A DNA stretch of 17,615 nt from Erysipelotrichaceae bacterium (GTDB taxonomy: Bacteria; Bacillota_I; Bacilli_A; Erysipelotrichales; Erysipelotrichaceae): assembly GCA_016302195.1 (NCBI GenBank), contig JAEDOA010000017.1:1-17615 (forward strand), in the 5' to 3' direction. The translations under genes were made by a program, and so were the position numbers. The notes under the pieces are model-generated. The model worked only from the letters and a program-made list of their open reading frames with translations. It was not told the DNA's origin and searched no databases. Each line of letters opens with the position of its first letter. Positions within the stretch are counted from its first letter, which is position 1. Of this stretch, positions 7,395 to 13,169 are shown in pieces.

Positions 7395-7432
7395 ATACCG
7401 AGTAGTTTAAACTACTCGGTATTTTGTTGTTT
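7395..7432. terminator. bidirectional rho-independent terminator between the convergent MVP-like gene and the minus-strand nuclease gene
   Basis: Perfect 28-bp inverted repeat ATACCGAGTAGTTT|AAACTACTCGGTAT, followed by TTTTGTTGTTT on the + strand and TTTATTTTATATTATATT on the other side. It overlaps the last 5 codons of CDS 7407-8135. Confidence 0.7.
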
Positions 7433-8135
7433 CTAATAATAAATCTTCAAGACATAAATCATCGTAATAAGTATATGGAATTCTTATTAAAGGAATGTTA
7501 TTATCTTTACAATATTCATTTTTAATTTTATCTTTTTTTGTAACATTTTTTAAATATTCTTCAGTACTCCAACCTCCAGTACTTTTAAAATGTTGGATAC
7601 CATCATATTCAATTAAATATTTATTATTAACATAAAAATCAAATCGTGGAGTGCTATTATTTTCATATTTAAAATTATCAAAAGTTTTTTCTCTTATAAA
7701 AGAAATATTGTTTAAAGTAAGAATATCTTTTATTTTTTCTTCTCCTTTGGATTTTGTAACACATCCACAAGATGTTGTATGGCCATTTCTTAATTTAGTT
7801 CCATCAACAATAAGTCTTGTATGATTTATACAATCACATTCACATTCCCAGTAAATATGGTCAGATTTAATACCTTCTTTTCTTCCATATTCTTTAATTA
7901 CTGTCAAATGATTATATTTTTTTCCCACTTCATTTTTAAAAGAATTATTTCTTTGTTTTCTTAAACATCCACAAGATTTAGTATGACCGCTTCTGAGATA
8001 ATAACCAAAAACAGTAACTTCATTTCCACAATCACATTTGCACTTCCAAAATGTTTTTCCATTTTTACTTTCTGCTCTTTCAATCACTTCTAAAGAACCA
8101 AATCTTTGTCCTGTTAAATCAATTAATTTACTCAT
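7407..8135 (-). CDS. putative homing-endonuclease-like protein, paralog of 4011-4787 (zinc-ribbon repeats plus Vsr-like PD-(D/E)xK domain)
   Basis: RBS GGAGGAAAAAA before the ATG. It shares 'WKCKCDCGNEV...SCGCL', a second repeat 'WECECDCINH...SCGCV', and the C-terminus 'RFDFYVNNKYLIEYDGIQHFK...NNIPLIRIPYT', about 60% identical to the other copy's C-terminal domain. Confidence 0.6.
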   Translation of the reverse strand: MSKLIDLTGQRFGSLEVIERAESKNGKTFWKCKCDCGNEVTVFGYYLRSGHTKSCGCLRKQRNNSFKNEVGKKYNHLTVIKEYGRKEGIKSDHIYWECECDCINHTRLIVDGTKLRNGHTTSCGCVTKSKGEEKIKDILTLNNISFIREKTFDNFKYENNSTPRFDFYVNNKYLIEYDGIQHFKSTGGWSTEEYLKNVTKKDKIKNEYCKDNNIPLIRIPYTYYDDLCLEDLLLETTKYRVV

Positions 8136-8295
8136 TATTTTTTTCCTCCATTATAATATAATTCGCATTTTTGCCTTCTCCTTCTTTTATAACTATAATA
8201 CCTTTTTTCTTTAAACTCTCTTGAGTTCTTTTAAAATTAGTCATTAAAGTAGAAGGTGATTTATTTAATTTTTCGCTTAATTCAAATAATGTCAT
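8128..8295 (-). CDS. small helix-turn-helix DNA-binding protein (about 55 aa), likely a transcriptional regulator co-transcribed with the downstream nuclease gene
   Basis: Preferred start is the ATG at 8295 (MTLFELSEKLNKSPSTLMTNFKRTQESLKKKGIIV...) with AGGAAG 7 nt upstream. The track ORF extension to 8466 overlaps the + strand promoter and is low-complexity. The stop is 2 nt before the start of 7407-8135. Confidence 0.5.
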   Translation of the reverse strand: MTLFELSEKLNKSPSTLMTNFKRTQESLKKKGIIVIKEGEGKNANYIIMEEKNNE

Positions 8296-8321
8296 TTTTT
8301 CACTTCCTTTCATTATTATAT

Positions 8322-8343
8322 AAAAATTGTCGCGACAATTTTT
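8322..8343. promoter_or_regulatory. perfect 22-bp palindrome AAAAATTGTCGCGACAATTTTT, a putative operator
   Basis: Perfect dyad symmetry centred on CGCG. It lies 27 bp upstream of the HTH gene start (minus strand) and between that gene and divergent promoter copy 5. It overlaps the likely -35/spacer of the minus-strand promoter (TATAAT at 8312-8317 on the complement). Confidence 0.5.
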
Positions 8344-8367
8344 TATTAGTTTGTCCAAGTTGCCCCC

Positions 8368-8396
8368 TTTATTTTTTTGAAAAATTATGATATAAT
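8368..8396 (+). promoter_or_regulatory. conserved phage promoter, copy 5
   Basis: TTTATT-TTTTTGAAAAATTATGA-TATAAT followed by (AT)9. Confidence 0.65.
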
Positions 8397-8434
8397 ATAT
8401 ATATATATATGAAATAGAAAAGAGGATAAAAAAT

Positions 8435-8608
8435 ATGAAAAATGTTGGGGCAACAAAAATGCACATTAAAGAAATTCACAAGAAACCTCATTCAGAACCA
8501 AAGAGAGTAAGAAAGAAAGTTGAAACAAAACAAAAGACAAAGAAAATTGGTTTTATTGAATTATTATTGCACTTATTTTTAGGATTGGAGATTGATAATA
8601 ATGAGTAA
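8435..8608 (+). CDS. possible small basic protein (57 aa, Lys-rich), not in the supplied ORF track
   Basis: ATG at 8435 with AAGAGG 8 nt upstream, directly downstream of promoter copy 5. Translation: MKNVGATKMHIKEIHKKPHSEPKRVRKKVETKQKTKKIGFIELLLHLFLGLEIDNNE. Confidence 0.3.
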   Translation: MKNVGATKMHIKEIHKKPHSEPKRVRKKVETKQKTKKIGFIELLLHLFLGLEIDNNE

Positions 8609-8828: not shown

Positions 8829-9014
8829 ATGGGAGAAATTATCGGAATTCCGCCATCAGAATGGGAATATGAGTTCATGGTTGTTAAACCTCGTGAAGAT
8901 GGTAATTTTGATTGGGTAGCAAATTATGAAAATTATCCCGTAAAAATAGAAGATGGATGTGTAATTACTCATAATATAAGAATTGCTCATAAGCAATTGA
9001 AGAAGAATATTTGA
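8829..9014 (+). CDS. hypothetical protein (61 aa)
   Basis: RBS GGAGGA 8 nt upstream of the ATG. The stop overlaps the -35 of promoter copy 6. Confidence 0.45.
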   Translation: MGEIIGIPPSEWEYEFMVVKPREDGNFDWVANYENYPVKIEDGCVITHNIRIAHKQLKKNI

Positions 9015-9039
9015 TTTTTTATAAAAAATATATTATAAT
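9011..9039 (+). promoter_or_regulatory. conserved phage promoter, copy 6, driving the RNA ligase gene
   Basis: TTGATT-TTTTATAAAAAATATAT-TATAAT. Confidence 0.65.
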
Positions 9040-9071
9040 ATTTATATAAAAAGAAAGGAAGTATAAAGAAT

Positions 9072-10310
9072 ATGTTAAACAAACAGGGTACGAGAGAGCT
9101 AGCTTATGTAGTAAAAATAGACAGTATAGAGCCAATACCTGGAAGAGATAGGGTTGAATGTGCTAAAGTTGGCGGCTGGACGATTATGGTTCGCAAGGAC
9201 CAGTTCAAGCCTGGTGACCTGGGTATCTACTTTGAGATTGACTCTAAAGTACCTGCAAAGGAGCCTTTTATGTTCCTTGAGGGTAAGCATTTTAAGATTA
9301 AGACACAAAAGTACAAGACTCCAAATGGTCAGTTCTGGTCACAGGGTTTGCTTATGGCAGCTTCTGATTTTGGCTGGATATATACTGGAGAAGATTTTGT
9401 AACAAATGATAATAAAGTTTTTAGGCTAGGGGATTTCCTTACAAAAGAGCTTGGGATTACATATGCAGACCCTGAAGATAATTCTCGTAAGTCTAAGTCT
9501 TCAGTAGATAAGTATCAGAAGATGGCTCAGAGAATGGGTAAGAAGTTCGCTAAGCAGCCATACAGATGGCTTATGAAGAGAATCTGGGGTAAGAAGTTAC
9601 TTTTCTTCTTCTATGGTGAAAAGAAGGATACTAAGGCGTGGCCTGAGTGGGTAGTAAAGACAGACGAAGAGAGAGTTCAGAATATGCCTTGGATTCTTGA
9701 GGATAAGTCTGAGTGGTTTGCTACTGAGAAGATTGATGGTACTTCAACAACTTTTACAATGAAGGGTTGGGGAAGAAAAAGAGAGTTCTTTATCTGCTCA
9801 AGAAACGTATGTTTCAATACACCTGAGAAGATGGAGGCTGGTGCTTGGTATGACACTAATGTATATCAGGAGATGGGCATTAAGTATAACATTGAGAATG
9901 TACTTGCTACACTTATGGAATACTTTAATAAAATCGGCACTGGCGCAGTTGATTTCGTAACACTTCAGGGTGAAACATATGGTGCTGGTATTCAGAAGAG
10001 AGATTACTCACTTACTGACCACGACTTTATGGCTTTCAATGTAATTATTAAGTATGAGGGTGAGGCTCCTCGTAGATTAAATCCAAGAGAAATGACAGAT
10101 TTACTTGCGGATTATGGAGTACCTTGTGTACCAATCGTAGACGAGCATTTTGTAATGCCAGATACTGTTGATGAATTACTTGCAATTGCAACTGATGCAT
10201 CTAAAGTGGATGGCGGCATGCGTGAAGGACTTGTATTCAGGAGTGTAGATGGTGCAAAGTCATTTAAGGCTGTTTCAAATGAGTTCTTAATGAAGTATCA
10301 TAACGGTTAA
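9072..10310 (+). CDS. ATP-dependent RNA ligase (nucleotidyltransferase superfamily), with an N-terminal OB-like domain (DraRnl/NgrRnl/Rnl5-like architecture)
   Basis: RBS AAAGGAAG. Motif I 'ATEKIDGTSTTF' (KxDG with the lysine adenylylation site) at about residue 220. Downstream 'LQGETYGAG', 'REGLVFRSVDGAKSFKAVS' (motif IV/V-like EGxVxK ...K.K). The N-terminal ~100 aa 'VVKIDSIEPIPGRDRVECAKVGGWTIMVRKDQFKPGDLGIYFEIDS' resembles the extra N-domain of bacterial/phage RNA ligases. Confidence 0.7.
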   Translation: MLNKQGTRELAYVVKIDSIEPIPGRDRVECAKVGGWTIMVRKDQFKPGDLGIYFEIDSKVPAKEPFMFLEGKHFKIKTQKYKTPNGQFWSQGLLMAASDFGWIYTGEDFVTNDNKVFRLGDFLTKELGITYADPEDNSRKSKSSVDKYQKMAQRMGKKFAKQPYRWLMKRIWGKKLLFFFYGEKKDTKAWPEWVVKTDEERVQNMPWILEDKSEWFATEKIDGTSTTFTMKGWGRKREFFICSRNVCFNTPEKMEAGAWYDTNVYQEMGIKYNIENVLATLMEYFNKIGTGAVDFVTLQGETYGAGIQKRDYSLTDHDFMAFNVIIKYEGEAPRRLNPREMTDLLADYGVPCVPIVDEHFVMPDTVDELLAIATDASKVDGGMREGLVFRSVDGAKSFKAVSNEFLMKYHNG

Positions 10311-10403
10311 AATTATATGGTTTCCTAAGATGCCATAGTGTAGGTTGTAATAGGCGGGCTACTATAATATCCCTTCCATATAATCAATTATAAAAGGAGC
10401 ATT

Positions 10404-10649
10404 ATGATAATGAAAAAAATGTATATTGCTATTAACACTATCAATAAAGCAGCTGAATTTGTACAGAAAGCATCTCAAGTAGATGGTGATGTAATATGTA
10501 CTAAAGGTCGATATACTATTGATGGTAAATCAATTATGGGTATTTTTTCGATTGATATTTCAGAAGGTATAATAGTAGAATATCCAGAAACAGCTACCGA
10601 CTTTGAAGAGTATCTATCTCAGTTCAAAGTAAACAAAGTGGGGTTATAA
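10404..10649 (+). CDS. HPr-family phosphocarrier-like protein lacking the catalytic His15 but retaining the Ser46 region (Crh-like)
   Basis: RBS AAAGGAG. It aligns collinearly with HPr: 'VQKASQVDGDV' against 'VQTASKYDADV', and 'DGKSIMGIFSIDISEG' against 'NLKSIMGVMSLGIAKG'. The 'GIHARPA' active-site segment is 'TINKAAE' here (His to Asn, Arg to Ala). Confidence 0.55.
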   Translation: MIMKKMYIAINTINKAAEFVQKASQVDGDVICTKGRYTIDGKSIMGIFSIDISEGIIVEYPETATDFEEYLSQFKVNKVGL

Positions 10650-10657
10650 TACCCTGC

Positions 10658-10686
10658 TTTATTTTTTATAAAAATTATGATATAAT
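10658..10686 (+). promoter_or_regulatory. conserved phage promoter, copy 7, driving the kinase/phosphoesterase operon
   Basis: TTTATT-TTTTATAAAAATTATGA-TATAAT followed by TTATATATAAG. Confidence 0.65.
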
Positions 10687-10735
10687 TTATATATAAGAAA
10701 TAAGAAATACAAAAAATGAAAGAGAGGGATAATTT

Positions 10736-11029
10736 ATGTCTGGTTTTAGTTTAGAAAGTGAGTTTTATTGTTGTAAATGTGGAACAAAAGGAATACCTAT
10801 TGCTCGTAAAAAAGGAAAAGCGCGCGAGGCAGGTCATTTAAAAAAATTATACTGTCTAAAATGTGGTGAAGAAACAAATCATGCAGAATGTAAAGAATTT
10901 ACACATTATAGTAAAGCAGATTTTGAGTTTGAAAGACAGTATGGAAATTTTGATGAGAACCAAAATCGTATTTTAGATTATGGATTATTTAGAAATAAAA
11001 TGCACAATGAAGGAGTTGATTTGCCATGA
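10736..11029 (+). CDS. hypothetical zinc-ribbon protein (two CxxC pairs, 'CCKCG ... CLKCGEE')
   Basis: RBS AGAGAGGG. The stop overlaps the start of the kinase gene (ATGA), implying translational coupling. Confidence 0.5.
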   Translation: MSGFSLESEFYCCKCGTKGIPIARKKGKAREAGHLKKLYCLKCGEETNHAECKEFTHYSKADFEFERQYGNFDENQNRILDYGLFRNKMHNEGVDLP

Positions 11030-11544
11030 GTAAGAAGAAATTATTTGTAATGTGTGGAAATGCAGGATGTGGAAAATCTACTTGGATTCAAAATAATTTA
11101 CACACACTTGAAGGTTATACATCAGTAGTTTCTCGTGACCAGATTAGATTTTTATTTGTACCTGAAGGAGAGGATTACTTTTCAAGAGAGACTGAAGTAT
11201 ATGCTAAATTTATTGATGATATTCAATTTGGTCTTGAAAATGCGGACAATGTTATTGTAGATGCTACACATCTCAACGAAGGTTCCCGTGGTAAGTTACT
11301 TCGCAGAATTGGTCCCGCATTAAAAGGTGTTGAGGTTATTGCAGTAGTTATTAAGGTTCCTCTTAAGGTATCCTTAGACCAGAATGAGAAGAGAAAGGGT
11401 AGCCGCTCATATGTTCCTCGTTCAGTAATTCGTAGAATGTATTATCAGTTTACAATGCCTGCTTTCGAGGAAGGTTTTGATAAAATTTATGTTTACAGTC
11501 CATATAAAGAAGGTGCTAAGTACACTATTTTTGAGAAGGAATAA
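11026..11544 (+). CDS. polynucleotide 5'-kinase (T4 Pnk kinase-domain-like P-loop protein), stand-alone
   Basis: Walker A 'GNAGCGKSTW'. Collinear with the T4 Pnk kinase domain: 'VVSRDQIRF' against 'NINRDDYRQ'; 'VIVDATHLNEGSRGKLLRRI' against 'VIISDTNLNPERRLAWETF'; 'KVSLDQNEKRKGSRSYVPRSVIRRMYYQF' against '[28 protein letters not shown]'. There is no fused phosphatase domain. Confidence 0.75.
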   Translation: MSKKKLFVMCGNAGCGKSTWIQNNLHTLEGYTSVVSRDQIRFLFVPEGEDYFSRETEVYAKFIDDIQFGLENADNVIVDATHLNEGSRGKLLRRIGPALKGVEVIAVVIKVPLKVSLDQNEKRKGSRSYVPRSVIRRMYYQFTMPAFEEGFDKIYVYSPYKEGAKYTIFEKE

Positions 11545-11560
11545 AAGAGAGGTGATATAA

Positions 11561-11743
11561 ATGATATGCCCTGTAATGAGTTTCCAAAAACAATATACTT
11601 ATGAAGTAAATTGTCAAGAAGAAAATTGTGCCTGGTGGAATAAAAATTGCGGCAAGTGCGCTGTTGCAACTTTAGCCGAGAATAGTGAATCGGTAAGCGA
11701 AGCCGCCGCAGGTCAAAGAACAATATTTGTAAGGGAGGTATAA
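11561..11743 (+). CDS. hypothetical small Cys-rich protein (60 aa)
   Basis: RBS AGAGAGGTG 8 nt upstream. 'CQEENCAWWNKNCGKC'. Located between the kinase and phosphoesterase genes. Confidence 0.4.
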   Translation: MICPVMSFQKQYTYEVNCQEENCAWWNKNCGKCAVATLAENSESVSEAAAGQRTIFVREV

Positions 11744-11747
11744 ACTA

Positions 11748-12299
11748 ATGAGTCAAATATGGATAACTTCAGATTGGCATTTTTGTCATTCGCAACCATT
11801 TATTTATGAGCCTAGAGGATTCAAAAATCAATATGAAATGAATGCCGCGATTATTGAAAGACATAACGCTATTGTGCAAGCAGATGATGAAGTCTATGTT
11901 TTAGGAGATTGTATCTTAAATGATAATGAAGAAGGTATTAAATGTATTAAACAGTTAAAAGGACAAATTCATATTATTAGAGGAAATCATTGTACTGATA
12001 CACGAATCGCACTTTATAAGGAATGCTGGAATGTAGTAGAAGTATGTGATGCAAAGTGGTTAAAAATTGGAAAGCAGAGTTTCTTTCTTTCTCATTATCC
12101 TTGTCTTACAGATAATTACAATGATGACAAGCCACTCAGTAGAAAAATTATTTCATTATGTGGTCATGTTCACACATCTGATAAGTGGCATGATTGGGAT
12201 AATGGATTAATATATCATGTGGAGATGGACGCACACGGATGTAAACCTGTTTCCGCAGAACAAATTATAAATGATATAAAGGAGAAAATTAATGGGTAA
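11748..12299 (+). CDS. calcineurin-like metallophosphoesterase, candidate 2',3'-cyclic phosphodiesterase/3'-phosphatase partner of the kinase and ligase
   Basis: RBS AGGGAGG. Motifs 'TSDWHFCH' (DxH), 'VLGDCIL' (GD), 'RGNHC' (GNH), 'CGHVH' (GH.H). The same domain type serves as the phosphatase module of bacterial Pnkp. Confidence 0.65.
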   Translation: MSQIWITSDWHFCHSQPFIYEPRGFKNQYEMNAAIIERHNAIVQADDEVYVLGDCILNDNEEGIKCIKQLKGQIHIIRGNHCTDTRIALYKECWNVVEVCDAKWLKIGKQSFFLSHYPCLTDNYNDDKPLSRKIISLCGHVHTSDKWHDWDNGLIYHVEMDAHGCKPVSAEQIINDIKEKING

Positions 12300-12564
12300 A
12301 AAAGATGTTTCAGGATGGGCTATTGTTGGTGTTATTGCATTTTTTGTTGTAGTGATTATTATTGAGCCTGCCTTATTATTTTGGCTTGGATACTTCAGCG
12401 GCTGGTTAGCAAAACTGGTCATTGGTACTAAATTAGTAACTGCAATTAATATGGTATTTGGTACAGCTTTTACCGCAGATATGCTTCCAATGATTGGCGG
12501 TGCTCTTGGTTGGATTGGAGGTTTCTTCAAATCAATTAGTACTACATCAAACAATAAAAAATAA
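12292..12564 (+). CDS. small membrane protein (two predicted TM helices)
   Basis: RBS AAAGGAGAA. The start overlaps the upstream stop. Hydrophobic stretches 'WAIVGVIAFFVVVIIIEPALLFWLGYF' and 'FGTAFTADMLPMIGGALGWIGGFF'. Confidence 0.5.
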   Translation: MGKKDVSGWAIVGVIAFFVVVIIIEPALLFWLGYFSGWLAKLVIGTKLVTAINMVFGTAFTADMLPMIGGALGWIGGFFKSISTTSNNKK

Positions 12565-12574
12565 TAAATAATAT

Positions 12575-12618
12575 ATACCCAGGTTACCTATATAAGGAAA
12601 CCTGGGTATTTTATTTTT
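12575..12618 (+). terminator. rho-independent terminator
   Basis: 10-bp stem TACCCAGGTT/AACCTGGGTA with a 13-nt loop, followed by TTTTATTTTT. Confidence 0.7.
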
Positions 12619-12677: not shown

Positions 12678-12706
12678 TTGACAAATATATTTTTTTTTGG
12701 TATAAT
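12678..12706 (+). promoter_or_regulatory. canonical sigma70-type promoter (second promoter class): TTGACA, 17 bp, TGgTATAAT
   Basis: Exact TTGACA and TATAAT hexamers with an extended -10 TG. It lacks the conserved ATAAAAATTATGA spacer of copies 1-7. Confidence 0.65.
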
Positions 12707-12737: not shown

Positions 12738-13169
12738 ATGCGTTTTTTAGATAGTGGTACTATAAAAGAGACTGGCTATTCTACAGTTGTAATTGAACAT
12801 AAGGGAAATAAGTATGTGGGCCAGGCTAAATGCCACCCAGACGACACATTCTCTGAATTTACTGGATGTAGATATGCACAAGAAAGAGCTGAAATTAATG
12901 CTTTAAAAGATGAATGGAAACAAAAAAAGCATGACTGTGATGAGTGTAGAAAATACTTAATCGCAGTTTCTCAATATGCAGGTTTCGATAAAGAAAGTTC
13001 TACAGCAAAGGCGATGTTCCGACAGTTGAACCGCCGCATTAAAGAAGTGAATAAATTAGCAGAAATTATTAGTCAAAAACAATTTAATCTTCAAATTGCA
13101 ATTAGACAACAAGATGGTTTTAATAGTAAAATTGAACAAATGAGATTAAATGATAATAAAGAAAATTAA
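12738..13169 (+). CDS. hypothetical protein (143 aa), first gene of the PIN-PhoH operon
   Basis: RBS GAAAGGAGAAG. No family recognised. Confidence 0.5.
   Translation: MRFLDSGTIKETGYSTVVIEHKGNKYVGQAKCHPDDTFSEFTGCRYAQERAEINALKDEWKQKKHDCDECRKYLIAVSQYAGFDKESSTAKAMFRQLNRRIKEVNKLAEIISQKQFNLQIAIRQQDGFNSKIEQMRLNDNKEN

Follow-up and report, generated by a model that had tools for sequence, protein, structure and literature searches.

Positions 1-17,615 of contig JAEDOA010000017.1 of an Erysipelotrichaceae bacterium (assembly GCA_016302195.1; hereinafter the window, meaning this whole stretch) contained seven consecutive open reading frames (ORFs) on the plus strand at 9072-12564, among them genes for an RNA ligase, a P-loop kinase and a metallophosphoesterase (MPE). 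Together they probably form a module with which an uncultured phage heals and seals broken RNA ends, split over separate genes and arranged in two promoter-headed units (Table 1). A previous sequence-only reading of this DNA had proposed a heal-and-seal RNA repair set divided over three genes, and the proposal survived all computational tests, including those on the identity of the kinase and on the nucleophile of the ligase. The ORFs that it had placed in 9072-12299 were all confirmed, and each of the three profile families that it had named was matched, namely RNA_ligase (PF09414), AAA_33 (PF13671) and, for Metallophos, Metallophos_2 (PF12850). A role of the kinase and the MPE in RNA repair, together with the ligase, was the best reading of the locus.

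The ligase, the kinase and the metallophosphoesterase

The ligase was matched in Pfam by PF21189 (PHA02142 OB; 1e-19, residues 10-79) and PF09414 (2e-21, residues 214-401 of 412) and in PHROGs by phrog_968, RNA ligase (1e-56). Its best solved relative was NgrRnl of Naegleria gruberi (5cot; E 3e-29), which was aligned over residues 5-62 and 190-409. The protein consisted of an N-terminal OB domain followed by a nucleotidyltransferase (NTase) domain, with no C-terminal appendage, and its motif I read EKIDG, with the nucleophile K220 encoded at nt 9729-9731; this was in accordance with the earlier description of a KIDG enzyme with an extra N-domain. The motif I lysine, the conservation of which had been singled out for checking, was invariant in 13 homologues (49-67% identity), as were R8, D57, T197, R201, D222, E301, E385 and K399. 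The active site of NgrRnl is formed by R4, D53, T145, R149, K170, D172, E227, E312 and K326 (PMC7261155), and all nine residues mapped to these invariant columns; the equivalent of NgrRnl K121 was not mappable.

The NCBIfam model TIGR02306 (DRB0094, DraRnl) matched the ligase at 1e-24 with 87.1 bits. The equivalog cut-off of 151.15 was not reached, and the protein is therefore a divergent member for which functional equivalence is not guaranteed. The Rnl2 model gave 2e-5, as against 1e-24 for the DRB0094 model, and an Rnl1- or Rnl2-like ligase was rejected. From its sequence, the ligase was assigned to the Rnl5-type ATP-dependent RNA ligases, and nick sealing is predicted by family membership. 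It shared architecture and active site with DraRnl of Deinococcus and NgrRnl of Naegleria, and differed from them in its score below the TIGR02306 cut-off and in the linker that joins the OB domain to the NTase domain, which was conserved, basic and, at ~60 residues, longer than in NgrRnl. Enzymes of the Rnl5 family seal 3'-OH/5'-PO4 nicks in duplexes with an RNA 3'-OH strand, and their physiological role has been called uncharted (PMC4408790, PMC5397189).

The kinase domain was matched by PF13671 AAA_33 (4e-17), phrog_505 polynucleotide kinase (2e-20) and TIGR04075 bacter_Pnkp (9e-10). With the single sequence, weak matches to T4 Pnk and Capnocytophaga Pnkp1 were obtained in the PDB. A profile of ten family members matched the kinase domain of Clostridium thermocellum Pnkp (4gp7; E 2.8e-16), T4 Pnk (6.7e-16), PSTK (7.8e-16) and Pnkp1 (1.1e-15), against 3e-3 or worse for adenylate kinases and 0.2 for zeta toxin. 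A zeta toxin or an adenylate kinase, the identities that the sequence-only reading had named as contradicting its own, was rejected on these values, the Pnk-type matches being at ~1e-16. The kinase contained the P-loop GCGKST, an Asp general base, the substrate-binding motif RDxxR (R37-D38-x-x-R41), D79 and the lid arginine R123. Wang and Shuman reportedly found K15, S16, D35, R38, D85 and R126 to be essential in T4 Pnk; these residues aligned to K17, S18, D38, R41, D79 and R123 of the window kinase. In 10 homologues, K17, D38, R41, D79 and R123 were invariant and position 18 was Ser or Thr. As had been claimed, the protein was collinear with T4 Pnk (residues 2-142) and lacked its phosphatase: no HAD (DxDxT) domain was found, with no HAD_PNKP match, and the chain stopped after the kinase domain at residue 172. 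The gene product is thus a predicted stand-alone polynucleotide 5'-OH kinase of the T4 Pnk/bacterial Pnkp clade.

The MPE was matched by PF12850 Metallophos_2 (3e-7) and phrog_547 phosphoesterase (2e-41). All five metal-binding motifs (DxH, GD, GNH, H and GHxH) were intact, D9, H11, D54, N80, H81, H116, H140 and H142 were invariant in the family, and a calcineurin-like fold was confidently predicted from the model. In the PDB, the MPE profile matched Aquifex aq_1665 (1xm7; 5e-15) and, weakly, GpdQ, and no other solved structures. The structural neighbours following aq_1665 were LpxH, MJ0936, YfcE, lambda phosphatase and a nuclease MPE. The phosphatase domain of C. thermocellum Pnkp was not retrieved by the profile at E<=10, and the family read GDxxL/M with no GDxxDRG, the motif of the lambda/Pnkp clade. 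Membership in the bacterial Pnkp clade was rejected on the missing profile match, the missing GDxxDRG and the position of the structural neighbours. The earlier description of a calcineurin-type phosphatase as in bacterial Pnkp therefore stood at the level of the superfamily, with its full motif set, and failed at the level of the clade; specific sequence and structural similarity placed the enzyme in the uncharacterised aq_1665/phrog_547 clade. Since the MPE falls outside the Pnkp clade, any end-healing role must be argued from context. We propose that it acts as a 2',3'-cyclic-phosphate/3'-phosphate end-healing enzyme.

Coupling of the kinase and the metallophosphoesterase

Two sets of loci were collected from IMG/VR. 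In the ligase-anchored set (16 loci, 46-63% identity to the ligase), the kinase was followed by the MPE in 11. The pair was directly downstream of the ligase in seven loci (L004, L011, L012, L015, L016, L018 and L019) and ~7 kb from it in L006-L009; in L017 the ligase was cut by the contig end. The kinase-anchored set comprised 80 loci found with the kinase profile and scanned with hidden Markov models built from our own alignments, adjacency being defined as within 1 kb. Of the 28 closest loci (kinase identity 34-49%), 26 had this MPE adjoining; one of the two exceptions was a contig that ended 516 nt past the kinase. Over the whole set, this MPE was adjacent to 37 of 62 stand-alone kinases and to 0 of the 18 long ones (Fisher p 1.8e-6, kinship ignored). 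For the distant kinases alone, the counts were 11 of 34 stand-alone against 0 of 18 long (p 0.01, kinship again ignored).

Pfam scans, which covered ten of the 18 long kinases, detected an HD domain in five (L052, L053, L055, L057 and L061), HAD_PNKP (PF25109) in two (L088 and L101) and Metallophos plus an Rnl1-type ligase in two (L077 and L094); no second domain was detected in L064. In this family, the kinase is then usually followed by some phosphoesterase, which in the case of the aq_1665-type MPE is encoded by a gene of its own. Further, a search of 1.84 billion protein representatives with the MPE profile identified five cluster representatives of 341-348 amino acids in which an N-terminal AAA_33 kinase was fused to a C-terminal MPE (P0392, P0430, P0437, P0438 and P0449). 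Every MPE motif was visible in all five, and the kinase half of P0449 was 44% identical to the window kinase (E 4e-36); the contigs of the fusions were too short to reveal neighbours. Adjacency, a distribution complementary to that of fused kinase-phosphoesterases, and these fusions together make it very likely that the kinase and the MPE are a functional couple.

The ligase gene beside the pair was of the Rnl5 type in the window, its relatives and the distant L097, and of the Rnl1 type in the distant L068, L081 and L096. The gene order ligase, HPr-like protein, Zn-ribbon protein, kinase, small ORF(s), MPE was retained in L104, L107 and L108, with 90% identity of the kinase in L107 and L108 and 80% identity of the MPE in L104. 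Genes for GIY-YIG homing endonucleases were repeatedly inserted in the module (L015, 9503-10260; L107, 6188-7066 and 10903-11574), between kinase and MPE in both loci and before the ligase in L107. In L015, the MPE had an in-frame stop right after DxH (SDTH*HFCH), which may reflect a sequencing error, a pseudogene or another cause, and in L005 (9554-11505) the MPE was without its N-terminus and DxH motif in a region that looked degraded.

Several observations weighed against the RNA-repair reading. In addition to the position of the MPE outside the Pnkp clade, phrog_547 MPEs occurred in 1133 cultured phage records, and no kinase adjoined them in the neighbourhoods inspected. In the 502-amino-acid metagenomic protein P0391, an MPE of the same clade was fused to a TatD-type DNase domain, so the clade has nuclease-linked contexts too. 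For both reasons, the role of the MPE may be broader than end healing or different from it. In one sub-lineage (L010, 9550-10391, and probably L005), the operon held ligase, Zn-ribbon and MPE genes and no kinase. The p values for the kinase-anchored loci are not corrected for kinship. The only known physiology of an Rnl5 enzyme is DNA-damage survival in Deinococcus (PMC5397189), and neither tRNA or tmRNA genes nor Rfam families were found in the window. Because of the kinase-free MPEs of cultured phages, the TatD fusion, the kinase-less sub-lineage and the DNA-damage physiology, three rival explanations were kept.

According to one of these, the neighbouring genes share no pathway, and the MPE is a general phage phosphoesterase that came to lie beside the kinase by chance in this lineage; it might degrade nucleotide or cyclic-oligonucleotide immune signals or act as a nuclease or a protein phosphatase. 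The cultured-phage records, the TatD fusion and the diverse substrates of the structural neighbours are consistent with such a role, as are a nearby gene for the anti-defence protein Tad8 (PF25189) in L104 and the proposal in PMC7824862 that calcineurin-like T5 A1 orthologues hydrolyse cyclic nucleotides. Chance proximity nevertheless accounts poorly for five independent clusters of kinase-MPE fusions, for adjacency in nearly all close loci down to 34% kinase identity, for the difference between distant stand-alone kinases and long, mostly fused ones, and for the presence of other phosphoesterase domains on long kinases at exactly the position of the MPE. We regard this explanation as improbable.

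Transcription units and neighbouring genes

Table 1. Features of the module and associated genes in the window.
Feature	Position	Strand	Basis
Thg1-like protein	1828-2643	+	PF04446, BtTLP 4kgk
Promoter-like repeat P1, before ligase	9011-9054	+	TTGATT, 17-nt spacer, TATAAT; 6-7-copy direct-repeat family
RNA ligase, 412 aa	9072-10310	+	ORF, Pfam, PHROGs, PDB match
HPr/Crh-like protein, 81 aa	10404-10649	+	PF00381
Terminator-like hairpin, 10-bp stem then T-run	10635-10660	+	End of ligase/HPr unit
Promoter-like repeat P2, before Zn-ribbon/kinase/MPE unit	10658-10701	+	Same direct-repeat family
Zn-ribbon protein, 97 aa	10736-11029	+	phrog_1257, four invariant Cys
P-loop kinase, 172 aa	11026-11544	+	PF13671, phrog_505
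Cys-rich ORF, 60 aa	11561-11743	+	ORF, kept in close relatives
Metallophosphoesterase (MPE), 183 aa	11748-12299	+	PF12850, phrog_547
Small hydrophobic protein, 90 aa	12292-12564	+	ORF; weak phrog_30257 match
PIN-PhoH2	13209-14459		Downstream of MPE; NCBIfam 'RNA 5'-3' helicase PhoH2' 1e-26, far below equivalog cut-off

A 25-nt motif, TTTTTTATAAAAAWTATRWTATAAT, was matched eight times in the window at <=3 mismatches, against 0.01 matches expected from 200 shuffles. Seven matches were on the plus strand, apparently between ORFs, with starts at 305, 807, 3954, 4871, 8372, 9015 and 10662 and a weaker copy at 15881; the eighth was on the minus strand and overlapped the 9015 site. The layout was TTGATT or TTTATT, a 17-nt T/A-rich spacer and TATAAT, with an extended -10 TG in most copies. 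The sequence-only reading had pointed to two copies of a conserved promoter, and zero-mismatch copies were indeed present at 9015-9039, starting 57 nt before the ligase ATG, and at 10662-10686, starting 74 nt before the Zn-ribbon ATG. At P1, a sigma-70-like 10/12 match was also found (9011-9039). The hairpin between the two copies had a folding free energy of -12.8 kcal/mol (z -2.97 vs shuffles). With motif copies before the ligase and Zn-ribbon genes and the hairpin between them, the locus therefore comprises two units, one of ligase and HPr-like protein and the other of Zn-ribbon protein, kinase, small ORF, MPE and hydrophobic protein. Eight relatives with ligases 50-62% identical (L004, L011, L016, L023, L024, L026, L031 and L104) also had a copy of the motif at the site equivalent to P2, ~45-65 nt ahead of the gene for the Zn-ribbon protein or the kinase. 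Judging from the layout of the motif, our guess is that the units would be expressed early from sigma-A-like promoters.

Within the second unit, the Zn-ribbon stop overlapped the kinase start (ATGA), which translationally couples the two genes, and the MPE stop overlapped the start of the 90-amino-acid ORF. Two ORFs on the minus strand (11493-11723 and 12207-12554) were discarded, given their overlap with conserved plus-strand genes and the uniformly positive GC skew. Downstream of the module, a perfect sigma-70 consensus distinct from the motif (TTGACA, 17-nt spacer and TATAAT, with TG) was located at 12678-12706, before the 12738-13169 ORF and PIN-PhoH2, and its sequence suggests that two promoter classes occur in the window.

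The Zn-ribbon protein was matched by phrog_1257 (2e-11), with C12, C15, C40 and C43 invariant, and had more than 1000 unnamed metagenomic homologues. In 18 of the 28 close loci, its gene immediately preceded that of the kinase. An AlphaFold2 model (predicted local distance difference test score 91) showed a bL33-like fold. In Pfam, no family including Ribosomal_L33 was matched at E<=0.1, and in the PDB the profile retrieved no bL33 and only insignificant eS26 matches. Alignment by hhalign with three bL33 sequences gave a probability of 42%, with both CxxC knuckles in register. The likeness to bL33 is therefore treated as a modelled fold resemblance and a lead, not as homology.

The coupling of this protein to the kinase, the contact of bL33 with E-site tRNA (PMC6375957) and the lack of an established physiological substrate for Rnl5 are the points in favour of a second explanation, in which the module serves RNA modification or processing, not damage repair, and would mature or circularise a transcript or tRNA-like RNA or act on the ribosome with the bL33-like protein. 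We consider this very improbable: neither an RNA gene nor a conserved RNA structure turned up in the window, the three enzymes make up the canonical heal-and-seal trio, and homology of the Zn-ribbon protein to bL33 is unproven by either of the searches described above.

The HPr-like protein was matched by PF00381 (3e-7) and by HPr and Crh in the PDB (3e-6 to 1e-4). We placed His15 by the canonical HPr motif GLHTRPAA; the corresponding NTINKAAEFV had Thr at this position, and the Ser46 motif KSIMG was kept. A phosphocarrier of the phosphotransferase system was rejected on the Thr at the position of His15, as read from the alignment with this motif. The gene directly followed the ligase in L014, L018, L019, L023, L025, L047, L104, L107 and L108. 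Instead of a part in RNA repair, the Crh-like protein may have a role in disturbing the carbon catabolite control of the host.

The Cys-rich ORF had the pattern CP...C...CAWWNKNCGKC...AAAGQR and no match in Pfam or PHROGs. Sequences 60-75% identical were present at the same position in L103 (119-301) and L104 (9808-9996), and L107 had a 60-amino-acid gene call there, matched by position and unaligned. Homologues of the 90-amino-acid hydrophobic protein followed the MPE in L018 and L019; L107 had a 90-amino-acid call at that place, likewise unaligned.

The Thg1-like protein was matched by PF04446 (1e-31) and by the Bacillus thuringiensis Thg1-like protein BtTLP (4kgk; 4e-63), and the carboxylate motifs RVDG and QSDE were aligned. 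From this similarity it is of the bacterial Thg1-like type and a predicted 3'-5' polymerase. The accessory genes had been assigned earlier to an expanded RNA-repair island; this held for the Thg1-like gene, of the BtTLP type, and not for the Crh-like HPr gene, which was tied to the module by synteny only. The Thg1-like gene was <=8 kb from the ligase or kinase in L004, L006-L009, L013, L031, L034, L049, L050, L107 and L108, and in the close relatives (L104/L107/L108 group) it was just ~2 kb upstream of the ligase. An involvement of Thg1 family members in RNA repair, in cooperation with RNA ligase and polynucleotide kinase, is predicted in PMC2904730. The PIN-PhoH2 gene was usually a few kb downstream of the MPE in relatives.

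Distant kinase-MPE pairs often adjoined DUF2828/DUF7788 proteins, which are presumably TROVE/vWA Ro-like. In L104 (1872-2885 and 6258-6533) and L107 (533-2837), DUF2828/DUF7788 and a second, larger Metallophos protein were encoded upstream of Thg1 and ligase.

The neighbourhood also bears on a third explanation, that of DNA end processing or repair during phage replication or host nuclease attack. The kinase and the MPE would clean 5'-OH and 3'-phosphate DNA ends, and Rnl5 would seal nicks carrying a short ribonucleotide patch on the 3' side, as proposed for DraRnl. Rnl5 enzymes need RNA at the 3'-OH side only; the 5'-phosphate strand and the template may both be DNA. Loss of DraRnl makes Deinococcus sensitive to ionising radiation and slows its genome reassembly (PMC5397189, PMC4408790). 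The Deinococcus megaplasmid encodes a Pnk, DR_B0098, in the vicinity of rnl (PMC6300522). In relatives, genes for RNase H, gyrase and topoisomerase were present a few kb downstream. A number of findings point instead to RNA. Elsewhere, the same kinase-MPE pair partners Rnl1-type ligases, which as far as is known are specific for RNA/tRNA; the neighbourhood is rich in RNA genes (the BtTLP-type Thg1-like gene, PIN-PhoH2, an 'RNA helicase' by its NCBIfam name, and DUF2828/DUF7788); and the closest structures of the kinase are RNA-repair kinases. A DNA substrate is accordingly judged unlikely.

The window looks like phage DNA, and the owner of the module like an uncultured low-GC phage. The window had a GC content of ~30% and a positive GC skew throughout, nearly all long ORFs were on the plus strand, and Pfam matches included a CHAP plus PG_binding lysin, a GIY-YIG/NUMOD3 homing endonuclease, PIN-PhoH and the Thg1-like gene. 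Megablast of 9000-12600 against 50,697 cultured phage records gave zero matches, and every protein match in cultured phages was below 35% identity. A look-up of the exact ligase sequence retrieved no record. A Firmicutes/Clostridia host may be suggested by the CHAP plus PG_binding lysin, the Crh-like gene, the BtTLP-like Thg1 and one match named 'Clostridia bacterium'. PADLOC defence models gave no meaningful match on the window. Upstream of the module, an 808-amino-acid protein with MVP-shoulder/SPFH domains was encoded at 4950-7376 (+), with a GC of 0.38 vs ~0.27 in the surroundings. It was flanked by paralogous minus-strand genes (4011-4787 and 7407-8135) with common DNA repeats and weak DUF2726 matches, and a minus-strand helix-turn-helix gene followed at 8128-8466. 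The block was missing between Thg1 and ligase in the close relatives L107 and L108, and the MVP-like gene was present at that position in L004, L005, L018, L023, L026 and L036; 4011-8466 resembles a slot of variable content or a cassette insertion. In addition, a DUF5662 protein was encoded at 16178-16720, with counterparts near the ligase or PhoH gene in L006-L009, L013, L018, L019, L025, L026, L038 and L107.

Proposed repair scheme and known systems

In the RNA-repair scheme that we favour, cleavage by a defence ribonuclease of the host or by a ribonuclease toxin of a competitor would leave a 2',3'-cyclic phosphate or 3'-phosphate plus a 5'-OH. The MPE would convert either kind of phosphate end to a 3'-OH, the Pnk-type kinase would phosphorylate the 5'-OH, and the Rnl5 ligase would adenylylate the 5'-phosphate and close the break, probably where folding or base pairing of the RNA, as in tRNA, keeps the two ends together as a nick. 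The Zn-ribbon protein may be an RNA-binding accessory, and the Thg1-like 3'-5' polymerase would rebuild lost 5' nucleotides from the same 5'-phosphate ends. The purpose would be to reverse the damage that host defences or toxins cause by cutting RNA, as a counterpart of T4 Pnkp/Rnl1 vs PrrC.

A more elaborate version, for which we see only a small chance, is a complete RNA gap-repair pathway centred on the Rnl5 ligase. The attack would remove nucleotides from a base-paired region of tRNA or rRNA; MPE and kinase would heal both ends, the Thg1-like polymerase would refill the missing 5' nucleotides with the opposite strand as template, and Rnl5 would seal the duplex nick, with the bL33-like Zn-ribbon protein guiding the kinase to tRNA or the ribosome. 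If this were true, the Rnl5 family would gain its first physiological RNA substrate, and the aq_1665/phrog_547 phosphoesterases of more than 1000 cultured phages a function.

T4 Pnkp and Rnl1 repair tRNA-Lys cut by PrrC. The analogy with this pair, drawn in the sequence-only reading, held in its heal-and-seal logic, in the phage origin of the genes and in the homology of the kinase to the T4 Pnk kinase domain, and it is loose because the ligase is of the Rnl5 type, with no counterpart of Rnl1. In T4, the kinase is fused to a HAD (DxDxT) 3'-phosphatase and tRNA is sealed by Rnl1; in the window, the phosphoesterase is a separate dinuclear-metal MPE, and the ligase has an N-terminal OB domain and no C-terminal domain. 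The bacterial Pnkp/Hen1 (C. thermocellum) and Pnkp1-Rnl-Hen1 (Capnocytophaga gingivalis) systems likewise unite kinase, metallophosphoesterase and ATP-dependent ligase, the ligase being already a separate polypeptide in Pnkp1-Rnl. In bacterial Pnkp, kinase, lambda-phosphatase-like MPE and Rnl4 are parts of one polypeptide, whereas the window has separate genes and Rnl5. No methyltransferase domain such as that of Hen1 was found among 29 window ORFs scanned against Pfam.

In the Deinococcus system, with its radiation-resistance phenotype, an HD-Pnk is encoded near the ligase, whereas the healing partner in the window is the split kinase and MPE. An Rnl5 gene and a long kinase were present in the same locus in L052, L053 and L071 of IMG/VR, with an HD domain on the kinases of L052 and L053. 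Phage fusions of ~740-870 amino acids joined a homologous kinase to a calcineurin-like phosphoesterase and a ligase in that order. They differed from the window in being single polypeptides, in an MPE matched best by PF00149 and in an Rnl1-type ligase (PF09511). Among cultured phages, Silviavirus (Staphylococcus) had a 766-amino-acid kinase-containing fusion protein, annotated as a Ser/Thr phosphatase and compared by annotation, and pairs of RNA ligase and Pnk were present in Thrax5 and, among tRNA genes, in StarPlatinum.

According to PMC7824862, ATP-dependent RNA ligases of phages have polynucleotide kinases and phosphoesterases as partners, and in a few jumbo phages calcineurin-like or HD domains apparently take the phosphatase role. 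The neighbourhoods surveyed by Anantharaman, Iyer and Aravind (2010; PMC2904730) and Iyer et al. (2021; PMC7824862) resembled the window in having a Thg1-like gene a few kb from a Pnk-type kinase and ligase; the combination of Rnl5, stand-alone kinase, aq_1665-clade MPE and Zn-ribbon protein was not described in the available text of these surveys. The general heal-and-seal scheme is already well described for phages, and the module is not surprising in principle. What is likely new is its composition, in which Rnl5 and a stand-alone kinase are combined with an MPE of the aq_1665 clade, the likely 3' healer, and with a conserved Zn-ribbon partner; this composition was conserved across an uncultured phage clade with contigs of up to ~195 kb.

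The module offers a testable function, RNA 3'-end healing, for the widespread phrog_547/aq_1665 clade, which is without known biochemistry, and a natural context for the Rnl5 ligases, which are structurally well characterised and whose physiological role has been called uncharted. It also illustrates that healing modules are interchangeable, as the 3'-phosphatase partner of one kinase family is a HAD, HD or MPE protein, either fused or split. If the module counters RNA-cleaving defences, it would bear on phage host range in low-GC Gram-positive hosts. Two questions are thereby made experimentally direct: the role of Rnl5 in vivo, and that of a common phage 'phosphoesterase'.

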